Source: Dictyostelium discoideum (lineage: Eukaryota). Taken from it: a stretch of 64,000 nt of DNA. How positions within the stretch are numbered: the first letter of the stretch is position 1; every line of letters begins with the position of its first letter. The DNA is taken from the NCBI GenBank assembly GCA_000004695.1, contig CM000150.2, forward strand, positions 896,001-960,000, read 5' to 3'. Shown piece by piece: positions 3,153 to 56,882 of the stretch. Position numbers and translations under genes: made by a program. Below the pieces are notes generated by a model. It did no database searches. It was not told the DNA's origin and saw nothing but the letters and a program-made list of their open reading frames with translations.

Positions 3153-6230
<3,078 letters not shown>

Positions 6231-7287
6231 ATAACTAGTACAACAACTTAAAAAAAAAAAAAAAAAAAAAAAAAATGAATAAATAAATAACAATAAACTT
6301 TCCAAAAAAAAAAAAAAAATTATTAAAAACAATTCTTATAAAAGGTAGTAGTAGTATTAGTATTAGTAGTAAAAAAAAATTATTAAAAATAAATAAATGG
6401 AAATAAATCGGAAAAAAAAAAAATAAAAAAATAAAAAAATAAAAAAAAATTCTATTTATTTTTATAATTTTAAATTTATGTTTTTAGTTTGACATGGACA
6501 ACATCCAGTTGGTTGCTCTCCGAAATTACATTCTCTATAAATTAAAAGACATGGTATTTTGTCTGGGCAAGGTTGACAAGCTTTTTTCATTTTTTTATTT
6601 TTTATTTTTTTTTTTTGCGTTAGTATTTATATCATTTTTTTTTATTATTATTATAATTTACTTACTTCCACAACAATTTTTTGGTAAAATAACAAGTGTT
6701 TCATATGGTCCACAAATTGGGTTAATACATGTTACTTTTGAGCAATCAATTTGTTTGCAATTAAAATACTTTAAATTTAATAGTAATAGAAAAATAAAAA
6801 TTTTGAATTTCATTTTTTAGGTTTTGAGATTGATAAACAAAAATTGTTGATAGTGATAATCAAAAAATAAAAAAATAAAAAAAAAAAAAAAAAATTAAAA
6901 AAGGAAATAAAATAATAAAATAAAATAATTTAAAAATGGAAATTAAAATGCCAGATTAAGTGATTCTGGAGGGGTTTTTTTTTTATTTTTTTTATTTTTT
7001 TTTATTTTTTTTTTTTTTTTTTTTTGGACACCCTTTAATATTTTTTTTGGCATTATTATATAAATTAGTTTAAATTTGTCTAAAACATATTTGAAGTTTT
7101 TGAAAAAAAAAAAACATTTTATTTAGAATTGATTAATTTAACTATTTATAAATTTTATTTAGAATTTATTAATTTAACTATTTTTTTTTTTTTTTTTTTT
7201 TTTTATATGATTTTTATTATCACTTTTATTTTTTATTATTGTTTTTTTTTATATTTAAAAAAAAAGAGATAATACCACCTTAACAAA

Positions 7288-47373: not shown

Positions 47374-48711
47374 TTAGTTGGTGAGTTCTTTGATTTTGGC
47401 ATCCTTTTTAACGATTTCAGATTCTAAGTAAGCAACACGAATCTTTAATTTTTCGTATTCTTCACGGAGTTCTTTTTCATTCTTTGGACCTTCTTGAACT
47501 TGAACGACTGGTTTGAATTCAACAGCTGAAGCTTTTTTGACAAAACCACCAGCTAAACTAACAGTCTTTGGTTCAGCATTGGTACCTGAAACCCATTGTT
47601 CGGCAGTGAGTGATGGTTCACCAGCGTAGGTATCTGGGTAGATATCGTCTTGGAAGATATCAGATTTTCTTGGTACACGGAATGAGATTGGTTCAACGGT
47701 GAATGGAGTAACTTTGAGACCTCTAGCGATTTCACATTCAGAGGTGTTGAGACATCTCTTTGGTAAGAAGCAAAGACCTCTTTGTGGGGTGGCAGATTTG
47801 AATTCACTTAAGAAATGAATGTATGGTGATTCATCGACCAATTCGTAGTATCTGATGTTACCATCACCTTTACCAGCAAGGTATAAAATTGAATTGTCAG
47901 CATCATAGAATGGCATTAAGAGACCAGAGGCAGAATCGACGACTTGAGCAGAGAGTGGGGTGGTGAAAGCACGTGGATCATAAATGTGGAGTTCTCTTTC
48001 AGAGGTCTTTGAGAAACCAACGGTGATAACCTTATCTTTGGCAAAGATGGCTCTGCTGTTTTTGACACCTTGGTGACAAACGACTTCGTTGACGATAGAG
48101 TTTGTTCTTGGATCGAAAACACGAGCTTTCTTATCTTTACAGGTGGTAACGATTTGGCTACCATTGTGATTCCATTCGCATGAAGTGATCATATCAGAGT
48201 GACCTTCAACAGTGGTTAAATTCTTACCTTGTTCAACATCCCAAGTTTTAACTAAGAAATCACCAGATGAGGTAACGGCAACATTATCAGCAACTGGATT
48301 GAATGAGATGGTACCAACCTTTCTCTTGTGACCAGATAAAGTTTGGAGTGGGGTTGAGATTGAGTCGGTTAAACCACCTTCTGGGATACCCCAAATACAA
48401 ATGTTACAATCTTCAGAAACTGAACCAACGAGGTTTTCATTGAATGGGTGGAAAGCAATATCTAAAACTGCACTCTTATGACCATTGAATAATGGAACTG
48501 ATGTGGTTTTACCTGAAGCCTCATGTGGAATAACAGCGAATGAACCACCACCTGCAGCATCCCAAATAACACCAAAGTATCTAGTGTTGGCTGCAACGTA
48601 ATTACTATCCCATGCTGATTTGGTAACTTTTAAGTTTTGATAGCACTCTTCTTTTTTTGGTTGTGCTGCAAAAACATGACGATATTTACTACTACGGACT
48701 ACTTTAGACAT
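47374..48711 (-). CDS. corA: Coronin (WD40 actin-binding protein), 445 aa, single exon.
   Basis: MSKVVRSSKYRHVFAAQPKKEECYQNLKVTKSAWDSNYVAANTRYFGVIWDAAGGGSFAVIPHEASGKT... followed by WD repeats and a C-terminal coiled coil (KLKIRVAYLESEIVKKDAKIKELTN). Typical of Dictyostelium coronin. GC content is well above the flanks. Confidence 0.9.
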   Translation of the reverse strand: MSKVVRSSKYRHVFAAQPKKEECYQNLKVTKSAWDSNYVAANTRYFGVIWDAAGGGSFAVIPHEASGKTTSVPLFNGHKSAVLDIAFHPFNENLVGSVSEDCNICIWGIPEGGLTDSISTPLQTLSGHKRKVGTISFNPVADNVAVTSSGDFLVKTWDVEQGKNLTTVEGHSDMITSCEWNHNGSQIVTTCKDKKARVFDPRTNSIVNEVVCHQGVKNSRAIFAKDKVITVGFSKTSERELHIYDPRAFTTPLSAQVVDSASGLLMPFYDADNSILYLAGKGDGNIRYYELVDESPYIHFLSEFKSATPQRGLCFLPKRCLNTSECEIARGLKVTPFTVEPISFRVPRKSDIFQDDIYPDTYAGEPSLTAEQWVSGTNAEPKTVSLAGGFVKKASAVEFKPVVQVQEGPKNEKELREEYEKLKIRVAYLESEIVKKDAKIKELTN

Positions 48712-49512: not shown

Positions 49513-50091
49513 TTTATTGGTATGTTATAACTCTCTTTTGTTTATTTTTTATTTTAATTTTTTTTTATTTTTTTTTTTTTATTTTTTTTTTTGTTTGTAT
49601 GTTAATCCAAAGCAGATTCATCTCTTCATAATTTTTTTTTTTTTTTTCATATGAAATGGCTTTACTTTTTTTCATAAAATATTTTTTTTTTTTTTTAAAA
49701 AATTTTTGTTTTTTTTTTTATAAAATTAGATCATTTGGAAATTCAACGAAAATTTCTATAAACCTAAAAATAATCCAACAAAGATGGCTATATTTTTTAA
49801 ATTTTATGTTGGCGGTAATTAAAAATATTCTTTATTCATTACACAAACATAGGGAATATTCAGACCTTTTCAAAACATCTGTAATTTTATTCTCTTTTCC
49901 AATTTCTCAATCATTATATTTATTTCAATAGGATGTAAGTCATTTTTATTATTGAGTTTATCTTCACTTTTTTTTTTTTTAATATTTCTTATTTTTTAAT
50001 GGAAATTTTAAAAAATACACTTTTTTCTTTTTTTAATGGAAATTTTAGAATAACGGATAAAATTTTTTGAGTTAAACAAATTTTCATCAAA

Positions 50092-50173
50092 GACATCGTA
50101 GCGAAGTGGTCTAACGCGTTTGACTTGAAATCAAATCTCCTAGGAGGCGCAGGTTCGAACCCTGCCGATGTCG
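50092..50173 (+). tRNA. tRNA-Ser(UGA): tRNA-Ser, anticodon UGA, 82 nt, no intron.
   Basis: Acceptor GACATCG/CGATGTC with G73. A 3-bp D stem. Anticodon stem TTTGA/TCAAA with loop CTTGAAA (UGA at positions 34-36). Long variable arm TCTCCTAGGAGGCGC. T arm GCAGG-TTCGAAC-CCTGC. Confidence 0.85.
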
Positions 50174-50260
50174 ATATTTTATTTGCACTGCTAAATTCCC
50201 GAACTTCGGATGTTTGAAACTTGGGTCCCAACCAAAATAGTTTTATCCATATAAAGAGCA

Positions 50261-51607
50261 CAGTACTGCTCAGCAACATCATCATCGTTAAACAAAGAGA
50301 AAACAGTAATGATAGCAATAGGAGATTACCATTCCAAGAGAGTACAGTCCCAGAAAGATATCTTGGCCTCAATTTCACCAAAACAGGTTTAAATTCAAAA
50401 TACAACACTTTAATCCAAGAAATGAAAAACAATCTAATCAAATGGAAATCACAAGCAATAACGATGAAGGCAAAGATGACAATTCTCAAAACATACGTTC
50501 TATCCAAATTAACATACCATCAATACATGGATAATCTAAATGAAGAACAAATTGAGGAAATCAATAACATGACCAGATGGTTCTTATTCTCCTCAGTTAA
50601 GAATACATATACAGAAGAGAGAAAATACAAAACTATGATGAAAATAGACAGAGCATATGCAGATTGGAAAGAAGGAGGCATAAAATTATGGGATTTAGAA
50701 CTAAGACATATAGCATTCAAAATCTGGTACATGAACAGGCTATTCCATAACAACTACAACAACAACAACAATACCTTACAAGAATGGTACATGGAGCAAT
50801 TAAGTAGAAAAAAGCCCACACTTCAACCCTCAACGATATGTGCAGACACTGGGGTGTATTCAGAGTCAAATTTTACAAAAACCATCCAAAGATAAATGAA
50901 CTTCCAGACTGTATAAGAAACGACAATGACGAACCACTAAAACTGAAAGAAATTTACGAACTCATGATCAAAGACAGACACCCAACACCAAGAAGAACAG
51001 AATGGCAGAAGTTATGGGCGGTGAGATACAACACAGCAATACCCAAAGTATTCATAAACATCAACAGCATTTCTCACCAAAAAGGTAGAAACACCCTCTT
51101 CAGATTCTTCTCAAGATCACTTCCAGGTATCAACCACGAAAGAGACACCAGATGCAAGATCTGTGGCCACCTATTAAGAGACCCTTATTCTCACCTCTTC
51201 ACTCTATGCCAAGATATCCTAGATATTGAAAAAACCATCATATCAACAGTTAACAAAATATCATTCATCAAAATCCACAGATGGTCAATGGATACCTTAG
51301 ACATATCAAAATACAACAGAACTGAGAGAATCTTCCCCAATCTCATAGGAATAATAGCACACCAATTATGGAAGATAATCTGTCACAAATTGTTCAACAC
51401 TGATGAAAGCAAACCAGAGCCAAAATTCGAACAAAAGGTCATAGAAACAGAATTACTAAATCTCATCGAAACTGAAAAATTCATCACACTAAAGAAAATC
51501 AAACACGACGAAGCAATACTAAAAAACACCAATCAAGATCTTCACAAATACAAATTCAACAAAGCCTGGCAAACCCCAGCAGCTCCGAACCCTCTTCCAA
51601 TTTAAGT

Positions 51608-51687
<80 letters not shown>

Positions 51688-51800
51688 GTTTAAAAAATTT
51701 AATACAATTGAATAATAAAAATAAAACCGTTTGACAAACACCGCCGAAAAGACACAAGGACATTCCTTGAAGGTCTGATCACAGGTAAAAAAAAAAAAAA
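50261..51800 (+). mobile_element. 5'-truncated non-LTR (LINE-like) retrotransposon remnant of the tRNA-gene-targeted class (TRE3-like, inserted 3' of the tRNA). RT thumb and C-terminal Cys-His domain, internal (A)67, terminal (A)15. Flanked by a 16-bp target-site duplication.
   Basis: Plus-strand ORFs 50221..50895 and 50838..51605 carry RT-like FQESTVPERYLGLNF..., then a C-terminal ...RCKICGHLL...C domain. Poly(A) at 51612..51678 and 51787..51800. ATCCATATAAAGAGCA occurs at 50245..50260 and again at 51801..51816. The insertion point is about 70 bp downstream of tRNA-Ser. Confidence 0.7.
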
Positions 51801-52333
51801 ATCCATATAAAGAGCATCAAACCGATATATTAAAAAAAAACAATTTAAAACTACAAACTTAGGGAAAATGCAAATAAAAAAAAAAAAAGAAATAATTAGG
51901 AGAATACAATAAAAATAAATAAAAAAAAAAAAAACCTTTGAAACAAAAAATAATCACAAAAATGAATCAAATTTTTCTTTTTTTTTTTTTATAAATTTTT
52001 TTTTTATATATTTTTTTTATTTCTATTTTTAAATATCACCATCATTTTTTTTTTTATTTTTATTTTTTGGAAATAGATTTTATATTATTTCTAAATAAAT
52101 TTAATGGAAAAATAAAATTTTTTTGATTTTTTGATTTTTTTTTTTTTGTTGTTGAACATTTGGGTTATCAAATGATGGAGTTATTGAATGTTGTGTGTGT
52201 TTGATACATTATTTTTTCTTTTTTTATTTTTTTTTTTTATTTTTTTTATTTTTTTTTTTTTGGTGCAATAAAAATTGATATTACACTTTAATATTATTAT
52301 TATTATTATTATTATTTATATGAGATATTTTTA

Positions 52334-54029: not shown

Positions 54030-56882
54030 TTAATGGAAAAAATATCTACTTTCTTTTACTTTATTAATATCTAATTCACCTTTTTTTGGTAATTTAGGGA
54101 ATTTAATATCTGGATATCTAACTTGGAACCATTCAAGTAAACGTTCTAAAATTGGTTGTTTATGAAGTTCAACAAATTCATTTCTTAAGATATCATTCAT
54201 TCTATCGACAGTTGAAGCATGAGTCCAATAGGAATCATGTACTGAGGAGTAGGTGATACCTTGATCATAACAAGTCATAGCAGTTAAAAACATATGAGTT
54301 GAATCTAAAGAGTGAATGAAATTTGGAGGGAAAGCAGAACGTTGACGATTTGAATCCACTTGAAGTAAATCATCATTATGAACTACGATGAAATCACATT
54401 CCAATGTTCTAATATTATATTTACCACCTTTTTTATATGGTTGTACAACTGGTAGACCCAATGGGGTGTTCCAAGTTACACAATGACCCGATTTTGCAAT
54501 GAGTGTGGCGCAATCGGACATCCACTTCATGATGGATCTTGCACCAACAAACATATTATTCAAAGAGGCAAAGGTGTTTTTTGTAATGTATGTAGAGGAT
54601 TTAAATATGAAATCTTCGTCTAAATCGAGATCACTAAATTTCTCAAGGATTGCATTTTCAATTTGTTCACGAGCACCAATATAGGTTACACCATATACAC
54701 TTGTCATAACGGTTTGTTTCACCAATTTTCTATCGACTTTACCTAAAAAGAATTGAGCAATCTCATCGCCATTCTTGGCGTCCTCCTCTACGATTTGCTC
54801 CACCAATTGTGCTACACTACTATAGACATCCTGTGGACAATCGGATGGGAGTAAATTAACCTTTTCAGCACCCCAAACATCACCACCCAAAGCAGCATAA
54901 TGTTGAAGACCATTGCAAGTACCATCTTGATGAATAGGTAAATTGGAGAGGAACTCGGCAGGTTTGCCACTACGAATGGCTTTGGTGAGCTCCATACAAG
55001 CTGCAAGAGTTTGCCATGGATTATCGGCCTTCAACCACCATTTATTACCATTCAATGGTGAATCAACACTATCGAAAATATTTTCCATGTTTCTCTCGGT
55101 GAATGCTAATCTTTCATTCAATGGAATCTTATCGACACCATAGAGATTTGCTACATGTATCTTTAACCATTCCAAACCTTTCTCGCCCAATGGCAATGAT
55201 TTTTCAAATTTCAATAGACTTCTACAAAAATCTGAACCTAAATGATTTAAATGTGGTGGAATTGGGTATGATCTACCACGGAAATCGATATTGTGTGGAA
55301 AGTAAAGTGTATGATCTAAAAACTTTCTGGCTACTTCCAATTTGTAATTTGTATCACAACGTAGTGAATGAAGATTGAAATTTAGCGATTTGATTCTTTG
55401 TTCTTTTTTGTAGAGTTCTTTACGAGCTTCATGATCAAACAACATATCATCTGATATCTCTGGATATTCGAAATCGGTTCTCTTGGGAATATCACCAATG
55501 TTACCACCATTGGCCCATGCTTCCAAGATTACATTGTAGAGATCTCTATTGATCACCCATGGTGTTTCACCGAGAATATTCAATGCTCTATAGATTAATG
55601 ACATATCAGAGTCTACGAGTGTTCTCAATTGCATTGCTGAGCCATTGGTTCTCATGATGGGTACTTTATAATGGAGGTATGGACCTTCGGTTGGTGTGAT
55701 CCATGGCAATGGTTTAATCACCATTGGGAATAGACGTGCACCACCTGTCTCTCTAATTTCATGACCTGCTTCAATCAATTTGAATATATTTTTGTGTGGT
55801 ATAACTTTTGTGGTTCTAACACCATTGGCATAATGAGATTGAATGGTGAAGGCTGGCGATTGTTTTGAGCCATCCTCACCCAACGACTCTTGAATCGTAC
55901 AATGTTTAAATACTTGACTCACAAGGAACTCACCAATGCTAAAGATGTCCTTTGATTCTGGTGGTAGAACGATCACATCGAGATTGTCTGTGGAAAGATT
56001 GTAAAACTTTTTAAGAGCAGAATTTGGTATGAGTTTTGAGATTTTCTTGTAGGTTTTTGGTTCTTTTTTCTTTACAATTAGCGATTTATACTCTGCATAC
56101 ACCGATACACCAATGGTCTCTATAATGATATTGGTCGCAAAGTCGTATCTATCTTTTAATACACTTTTGCCTACAATGATATTCAATGATTTTAGTATGC
56201 ATTTCTGAACAGACACTGTCTTCAATATAGTGACCCATGCTGCATCTTGATCCTTGGTTGCAAGATCCTTTTGTACCTTTTCTGTCAACCCTTCATTCCA
56301 TTGCATCAAAACATCACGAATCGATTTAAAACTGGTCACAAATGATTTACCCTTGCTATCAAGCATTAAATCACGATAACGAGTGACTGCGTCGTCAATG
56401 GCTTCAAATTCCAAGAGGGTTTGTATCTTTCTTAAATTCTTTTCATCATCACTAATCTCCTTAACATCACTCTTCCAATCGGTGTCATTTTCAATTCCAT
56501 CTTCACCATCTAATAAATAACTTTGTGCAACAACTCTTGCTTTATTCAATTTTGCTAAATCCTCTACAAATGATTTCTCCAAGTCGATTAATTTCTGTTT
56601 GGTTTCATTCAATCTCTGTTCACTATCTAAATATTCTAATGGTGATGATAAATCTTCTTTATCTGGAAATAATTCTTTTAATTTATCTAATCTATTTGAA
56701 TTCTCTTGTCCATCTTCTATAATTTTTCTTAAATTTGAATATTCATTTATTTTTATATTATTTATATTACTATTTATATTATTATTATTATTATTATTAT
56801 TACTACTACTATATTTATAATTATTAAAACTTTGTAATTTAACTTTTGAAATTGATCTTAAATTTTGACCTAACCTAATCAT
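54030..56882 (-). CDS. rpmA: Mitochondrial DNA-directed RNA polymerase (single-subunit T7/T3 phage type), 950 aa.
   Basis: T7-type RNAP catalytic motifs: IHQDGTCNGLQHYAALGGD (motif A), RKLVKQTVMTSVYGVTYIGAREQI (motif B), FIHSLDSTHM / SVHDSYWTHA (motif C). Basic N-terminal presequence MIRLGQNLRSISKVKLQSF. Confidence 0.85.
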   Translation of the reverse strand: MIRLGQNLRSISKVKLQSFNNYKYSSSNNNNNNNNINSNINNIKINEYSNLRKIIEDGQENSNRLDKLKELFPDKEDLSSPLEYLDSEQRLNETKQKLIDLEKSFVEDLAKLNKARVVAQSYLLDGEDGIENDTDWKSDVKEISDDEKNLRKIQTLLEFEAIDDAVTRYRDLMLDSKGKSFVTSFKSIRDVLMQWNEGLTEKVQKDLATKDQDAAWVTILKTVSVQKCILKSLNIIVGKSVLKDRYDFATNIIIETIGVSVYAEYKSLIVKKKEPKTYKKISKLIPNSALKKFYNLSTDNLDVIVLPPESKDIFSIGEFLVSQVFKHCTIQESLGEDGSKQSPAFTIQSHYANGVRTTKVIPHKNIFKLIEAGHEIRETGGARLFPMVIKPLPWITPTEGPYLHYKVPIMRTNGSAMQLRTLVDSDMSLIYRALNILGETPWVINRDLYNVILEAWANGGNIGDIPKRTDFEYPEISDDMLFDHEARKELYKKEQRIKSLNFNLHSLRCDTNYKLEVARKFLDHTLYFPHNIDFRGRSYPIPPHLNHLGSDFCRSLLKFEKSLPLGEKGLEWLKIHVANLYGVDKIPLNERLAFTERNMENIFDSVDSPLNGNKWWLKADNPWQTLAACMELTKAIRSGKPAEFLSNLPIHQDGTCNGLQHYAALGGDVWGAEKVNLLPSDCPQDVYSSVAQLVEQIVEEDAKNGDEIAQFFLGKVDRKLVKQTVMTSVYGVTYIGAREQIENAILEKFSDLDLDEDFIFKSSTYITKNTFASLNNMFVGARSIMKWMSDCATLIAKSGHCVTWNTPLGLPVVQPYKKGGKYNIRTLECDFIVVHNDDLLQVDSNRQRSAFPPNFIHSLDSTHMFLTAMTCYDQGITYSSVHDSYWTHASTVDRMNDILRNEFVELHKQPILERLLEWFQVRYPDIKFPKLPKKGELDINKVKESRYFFH

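Follow-up and report, generated by a model that had tools for sequence, protein, structure and literature searches.

In a 64,000-nucleotide stretch of the Dictyostelium discoideum genome (assembly GCA_000004695.1, contig CM000150.2, positions 896,001 to 960,000; hereafter the window, in whose own numbering positions are given), a retroelement remnant lies downstream of a gene for the transfer RNA (tRNA) tRNA-Ser(UGA), and it is almost certainly a dead, 5'-truncated copy of the TRE3 group that integrated behind this gene. TRE3 elements, the 'tRNA gene-targeted retroelements, 3' side', are L1-like retrotransposons of Dictyostelium without long terminal repeats (LTRs), and the group is made up of TRE3-A (formerly Tdd-3), TRE3-B, TRE3-C and TRE3-D. 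The remnant comprises 1,540 bp on the tRNA's strand (50261-51800) and is enclosed by the two copies of a 16-bp target-site duplication; downstream of the tRNA 3' end the first copy of the duplication begins at 72 bp and the element at 88 bp. The tRNA gene (50092-50173, + strand) is the only one that ARAGORN found in the window, and it scored 64.8 bits against the Rfam family RF00005 (threshold 29). A preliminary description, made from the letters of the sequence alone, had given this tRNA with its coordinates, the two distances and the exact 16-bp repeat, all of which were reproduced.

The duplicated target and its empty allele

The 16-mer ATCCATATAAAGAGCA occurs in the window at exactly two sites, 50245-50260 and 51801-51816, even if two mismatches are allowed, while shuffled sequences gave an expectation of 0.08 matches and none of 100 shuffles reached two copies. 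Within positions 49900-52100 it was the only direct repeat besides two low-complexity A/T-rich families, and no LTR-like direct repeats were found there. The bases beside the two copies differ (t and a on the left, c and t on the right), so that the duplication is exactly 16 bp long, give or take an ambiguous first A.

Orthologous intervals in other assemblies were retrieved through coronin, the product of a neighbouring gene, and its 90% cluster. Locus L014 (GCA_054859355.1, labelled D. discoideum) has an identical tRNA gene, homologous flanks and ATCCATATAAAGAGCA once, without the element, and L013 (GCA_054859385.1, likewise labelled D. discoideum) is organised as L014, but with an additional C in its one copy of the target. 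The duplicated 16-mer therefore marks the pre-insertion sequence, as the preliminary description had supposed. The site, empty in these two assemblies, is filled in the window and in L003 (GCA_054883475.1), which carries the identical insertion with the same duplications and with a coding part and a 3' module 100% identical to those of the window, so that the mobility event is documented by an empty allele.

The same tRNA gene has been struck twice independently, in two lineages. Behind the orthologous tRNA-Ser(UGA) of D. citrinum (L015; GCA_054859325.1, ~4575-5197, minus strand) there is a differently truncated copy of ~0.5 kb with a 16-bp duplication of its own, GTATCCAATTCTTTTT, and a second D. 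citrinum assembly (L016) is without this insertion.

Family membership and position behind tRNA genes

The coding part of the remnant is homologous to the C-terminal third of the proteins encoded by the second open reading frame (ORF2) of dictyostelid non-LTR elements (E = 4e-208 to 3e-30). Its repaired translation matched only dictyostelid proteins, several of them with RVT_1 or Exo_endo_phos domains, and exact-sequence and cluster look-ups returned only 'hypothetical protein' entries. By tblastn the remnant corresponds to protein P0007 from residue 249 to the natural C-terminus; since Pfam RVT_1 spans residues 46-290 of P0007, it begins just after the FADD box of the reverse transcriptase (RT). 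All homologues that span the region retain the CX2CX9HX4C motif, and with this homology the earlier picture of a 5'-truncated non-LTR element with an RT end and a Cys-His domain is borne out. Longer relatives carry the APE endonuclease (PF03372, in P0003) and the RT (PF00078, in P0007 and P0001). The ORF2 order APE-RT-zinc finger is thus seen at the level of the family, the window copy keeping the RT end beyond the FADD box and the zinc-finger part.

P0003 derives from the copy at L001 (99% identical 3' end) and P0007 from that at L010 of D. citrinum (97% identical); over the coding part the window copy is 97.2% identical to L010, 99.5% to L002 and 99.2% to L001. Relative to L010 it shows 25 substitutions and exactly two frame-breaking lesions, which were absent from the preliminary description. 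Because these two frameshifting deletions break the ORF2 frame, the window copy is dead.

Related copies were searched with blastn after removal of the homopolymer, the whole-element query being swamped by poly(A) matches. The nine related copies fetched, which come from D. discoideum, D. citrinum and D. firmibasis, are all situated downstream of a tRNA gene and in its orientation, start 50 to ~125 bp after it and each have their own duplication of 12-17 bp (eight of them in Table 1); with the window copy this makes ten of ten, in accordance with the TRE3-type targeting to the 3' side of tRNA genes that had been proposed. The duplicated target sequences of the window and of the related copies have no common motif. 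The copies form a truncation series with one 3' end, of 23 nt (L011b), ~0.5 kb (L015), 0.77 kb (L002b), 1.54 kb (window) and ~2.2 kb (L010), and L001 combines this 3' end with an apparently complete 5' end. At least two TRE3-like subfamilies, ~67% identical in their DNA, are represented among the sampled D. discoideum copies.

Table 1. Related copies, the tRNA genes behind which they lie, and their target-site duplications
Copy	tRNA gene	Element start after tRNA 3' end (bp)	Duplication (bp)
L001	tRNA-Phe	+90	17
L002a	tRNA-Val	+50	14
L002b (second subfamily, tandem behind L002a)	tRNA-Val	~+86 in empty-site coordinates	16
L010	tRNA-Gln	+67	14-15
L011a	tRNA-Lys	+59	15
L011b	tRNA-Ser(AGA)	~+125	12
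L009	intron-containing tRNA, found by Rfam only	+78	15
L015	tRNA-Ser(UGA)	+62	16

Several of these loci are of interest in themselves. At L001 (6001-8586, behind a tRNA-Phe gene of D. discoideum) there stands a 2.6-kb member of the subfamily to which the window element belongs, with a 17-bp duplication and an internal deletion that fuses the N-terminal/APE part directly to the Cys-His C-terminus; it is annotated as one protein of 744 amino acids, P0003. This deletion derivative, of which one copy was seen, resembles the non-autonomous TRE5-A.2 type. At L002 (5971-8611) two different TRE3 subfamilies stand in tandem behind one tRNA-Val gene, each with its own duplication, and the public gene model P0001 is a chimera spliced across both elements; in D. 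citrinum, P0006 is a methyltransferase fused to a TRE3 RT. Retroelement fragments are mis-annotated as host genes in new assemblies (P0001, P0006). The tRNA gene at L009 (D. firmibasis, 7180-7269), which contains an intron, was missed by ARAGORN in bacterial mode and scored 47.7 bits with Rfam, so that with ARAGORN as the sole predictor this TRE3 copy would wrongly have seemed to lack a tRNA gene; at the same locus Rfam gave a sub-threshold and probably spurious match to mir-3533 on the opposite strand of a neighbouring actin gene.

TRE3 elements integrate 40-150 bp downstream of tRNA genes and share their transcriptional orientation (PMC5911963; PMC5006619), and 61% of the D. discoideum tRNA genes have a TRE associated with them (PMC5006619). 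The window element agrees with TRE3 in host species, in being a poly(A) non-LTR element, in the APE-RT-zinc knuckle order of its relatives and in its co-oriented position 88 bp downstream, while the target-site duplication, the 5' truncation, variable among the copies, and the tandem re-targeting of one tRNA gene at L002 match what has been published (PMC5911963; PMC5006619); no observed feature of it differs. Measured from the start of the internal B box of the tRNA gene, the duplication begins 93 bp and the element 109 bp downstream, which fits the published rule of about 100 bp (PMC5911963; PMC5006619). TRE5-A (DRE), of a related clade that is also L1-like, has its ORF2 domains in the same order, is guided by the RNA polymerase III (Pol III) machinery and the B box, and has a 3'-terminal C-module. 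TRE5 elements insert upstream of tRNA genes, at a distance of ~50 bp and oriented opposite to them (PMC5911963), whereas the window element is downstream and co-oriented; in agreement with the preliminary description, which saw no TRE5 upstream, tblastx of the whole window detected no further TRE-like remnant. Mammalian LINE-1 shares the hallmarks of target-primed reverse transcription (TPRT), namely 5' truncation, a 3' A-tail and target-site duplications of 14-17 bp, but its endonuclease picks TTTT/A-type sites genome-wide, whereas the site of the window element is set by the distance to the tRNA gene.

The 3' module and alternative readings

The remnant does not end at the A-run that follows its stop codon. 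Between the TAA and this run stands GTAGT; the run itself consists of 68 A (51611-51678), where 67 had been reported, and is followed by 108 nt and a terminal tail of 14 A, for which the earlier figure of 15 is reached only by including the duplication's first base. An ORF stop, a long poly(A), unique sequence and a second poly(A) make up an anatomy like that of a transduction, in which the element would end at the internal run and the 108 bp with A14 would be read-through flank, as in L1-style 3' transduction, or else a second short insertion. We consider such a composite very unlikely, since the segment is a part of the element. A module of 108-109 nt after the ORF and the A-run is also present, at unrelated loci, in L001 and L002 of D. 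discoideum (98-99% identical) and in the D. citrinum copies L010 (98%) and L015 (94%), each of the four having its own target-site duplication outside the module, just as the 16-bp duplication of the window encloses the whole unit. The diverged copies L002a, L011a and L009 (D. firmibasis), whose coding DNA is ~65-67% identical, have the same layout and a terminal ACACCGC...AGGT-An motif, so that a stop, an A-run, a module ending in AGGT and an A-tail are common to diverged subfamilies of D. discoideum, D. citrinum and D. firmibasis. The last ~50 nt (ACACCGCCGA...hairpin...CACAGGT-An) persist recognisably across subfamilies with ORFs ~35% diverged in the three species, and L011a retains the AAGGA/TCCTT stem with a different loop. 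The remnant at L011b consists of the last 23 nt of the module and the A-tail and nothing else, which indicates that reverse transcription begins at the terminal tail and that the element canonically includes the module.

It could also be supposed that a non-targeted LINE fragment lies near a tRNA gene by chance and that the 16-mer repeat is coincidental, the genome being AT-rich and short repeats common in it, and the window offering a single tRNA gene (n = 1). This is extremely unlikely in view of the shuffles, in which two copies were never obtained even with two mismatches, and because the repeat exactly abuts both the first base of the element and its A-tail, the target is single-copy in strains without the element, and position behind tRNA genes is a property of the whole family. 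The preliminary description had named a retroelement class that is not tRNA-targeted and a recurrence of the 16-mer at unrelated loci as outcomes that would speak against it; the element is of a tRNA-targeted class, and beyond its two copies the 16-mer is absent from the window. The LTR retrotransposon Skipper-2 (DGLT-P) likewise integrates downstream of Dictyostelium tRNA genes, in a range that overlaps the position of the window element (PMC5006619), but Skipper-2 is an LTR/integrase element, whereas the window element is free of LTR-like direct repeats and ends in oligo(A), its homologues carry APE, RT and CCHC instead of the RT, ribonuclease H, integrase and chromodomain series, and a 3' end that stays constant while the 5' truncation varies is a non-LTR signature. 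That the remnant belongs to Skipper-2 is vanishingly improbable.

Several points nevertheless weigh against reading the remnant as a TRE3 copy delivered by the mechanism known for such elements. The name TRE3 is a provisional one, drawn from behaviour, domain order and host species and not from alignment to the type sequences of TRE3-A, -B, -C and -D. Pfam gave no significant domain on the repaired remnant, RVT_1 included, and only sub-threshold noise, e.g. Forkhead, so that the RT assignment comes from homology to longer copies. A canonical external B box was sought at the tRNA-Ser(UGA) locus and nothing reached 8/10 matches. In the alignment, the position orthologous to the degenerate box of the window is occupied by intact boxes, GGTTCGAAACT in L013 and TGTTCGAAACT in L014, from which the window (compared over 50190-50225) differs by T in place of C within the GTTCGA core and by ~13 bp deleted just upstream. 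The external B box has thus decayed in the window lineage, and either B box may have guided the insertion; at most other TRE3-like loci a good external B box lies 25-52 bp upstream of the junction. Finally, sequence cannot show TPRT or a contact with the Pol III complex, and the case for both is drawn from knowledge of L1-like elements and of TRE5-A.

In the account best supported on that basis, the ribonucleoprotein of the TRE3 element would have been directed to the Pol III-bound tRNA gene; the insertion point lies ~100 bp from the internal and ~35-50 bp from an external B box. The APE endonuclease would have cut the bottom strand where the 16-bp target begins on the left. Reverse transcription, with priming at the terminal A-tail and the 3' module, would have stopped prematurely after 1.54 kb, and a second nick, staggered by 16 bp, would have given rise to the duplication. 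The two frameshifting deletions would have been gained later.

In TRE5-A, a C-module hairpin is indispensable for retrotransposition (PMC3159450). The 3' module of the window element has a predicted hairpin, and its fold is modestly better than that of shuffled sequences (z = -2.1). By analogy with the C-module it would be a recognition site of the RT. A more specific proposal, which we put forward only tentatively and hold to be rather doubtful, is that the conserved module of ~110-150 nt may act in cis as an RNA element that the TRE3 RT recognises to start TPRT, and would so be a TRE3 counterpart of the C-module hairpin. The bipartite 3' end, a hypervariable A-run followed by a conserved module, is common to all TRE3-like copies examined and may be under-described, though it may also be that the primary TRE3 literature already describes it. 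As to the A-run, the identical insertion has 68 A in the window and ~35 A in L003, the other copies having ~20-45 A; either the homopolymer is truly unstable, or the difference is an artefact of sequencing or assembly. Apart from it, L003 is 99.9% identical to the window over 12.7 kb.

Features of the locus, neighbouring genes and significance

The features of the tRNA gene and of the element are collected in Table 2. The TTTT run next to the tRNA gene is probably its Pol III terminator, judging from general knowledge of Pol III termination.

Table 2. Features at the tRNA-Ser(UGA) locus of the window
Feature	Positions	Strand	Basis
tRNA-Ser(UGA), integration landmark	50092..50173	+	ARAGORN, Rfam RF00005; identical in L003, L012, L013, L014
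Internal B box GGTTCGAACCC	50152..50162	+	9/10 matches to GGTTCGANTCC
TTTT run immediately 3' of the tRNA gene	50177..50180	+	sequence inspection
Degenerate external B box TGTTTGAAACT	50211..50221	+	6/10 matches only
Target-site duplication, copy 1, ATCCATATAAAGAGCA	50245..50260	+	repeat searches; single-copy at the empty site L014, one extra C in L013
TRE3 ORF2, 3' part, 5'-truncated and frameshifted, reaching from the RT end across the Cys-His domain as far as the TAA stop (51603-51605)	50261..51605	+	three-frame translation, tblastn
13-nt deletion, first frameshift (AAACCACACGATC in L010)	50326..50327	+	pairwise alignment, tblastn frame switch
A6 run (A7 in L010), 1-nt deletion, second frameshift	50808..50813	+	pairwise alignment, tblastn
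CX2CX9HX4C zinc-knuckle motif CKICGHLLRDPYSHLFTLC	51153..51209	+	translation; Cys/His kept in P0002, P0003, P0005
Internal A68 homopolymer, 3' untranslated region, length-variable	51611..51678	+	run count
Canonical 108-nt 3' module, ending ...ACACCGCCGA...AAGGA-CAT-TCCTT...CACAGGT	51679..51786	+	identity among copies
Terminal oligo(A) tail, A14 (A15 counting the first base of the duplication)	51787..51800	+	run count
Target-site duplication, copy 2	51801..51816	+	repeat searches

The neighbouring genes, both on the minus strand, are those of coronin (47374-48711) and of the mitochondrial RNA polymerase (54030-56882), and the coronin of the window is identical to AX4 CorA (P27133). The insertion lies in the corA-rpmA interval of D. 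discoideum chromosome 1. The remnant is located 1.4-3 kb upstream of the coronin gene, and E. L. de Hostos, known for coronin, is reportedly a co-author of the 1998 paper on Tdd-3 (TRE3-A), an unverified lead taken from the author list; the locus may have featured in the 1998 Tdd-3 work, which is likewise unverified.

The copy is an ordinary example of an insertion type already described, in the organism in which TRE3 was discovered, and it is very probably annotated in dictyBase already. TRE3 behind tRNA genes being a textbook feature of D. discoideum, its significance is slight beyond a correct annotation. It makes a clean teaching example, with an exact duplication, an empty allele, the same insertion in a second assembly and an independent insertion in a sister species. 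Being present in some strains and absent from others, it might be used to tell strains apart, and the internal homopolymer is a likely cause of length differences between assemblies.

Some further differences were noticed between the window and the two assemblies with the empty site. Though labelled D. discoideum, L013 and L014 are strikingly divergent from the AX4-like lineage, the intergenic DNA flanking their tRNA gene being ~77-89% identical to the window and their coronin protein differing as well. To the right of duplication copy 2 (51817-51835), the window is without ~125 bp that L013 and L014 have, from ...TCACAACCAAT... up to the A-run that precedes CAATTTAAAAC, a difference that corresponds either to a deletion in the window lineage or to an insertion in L013/L014.

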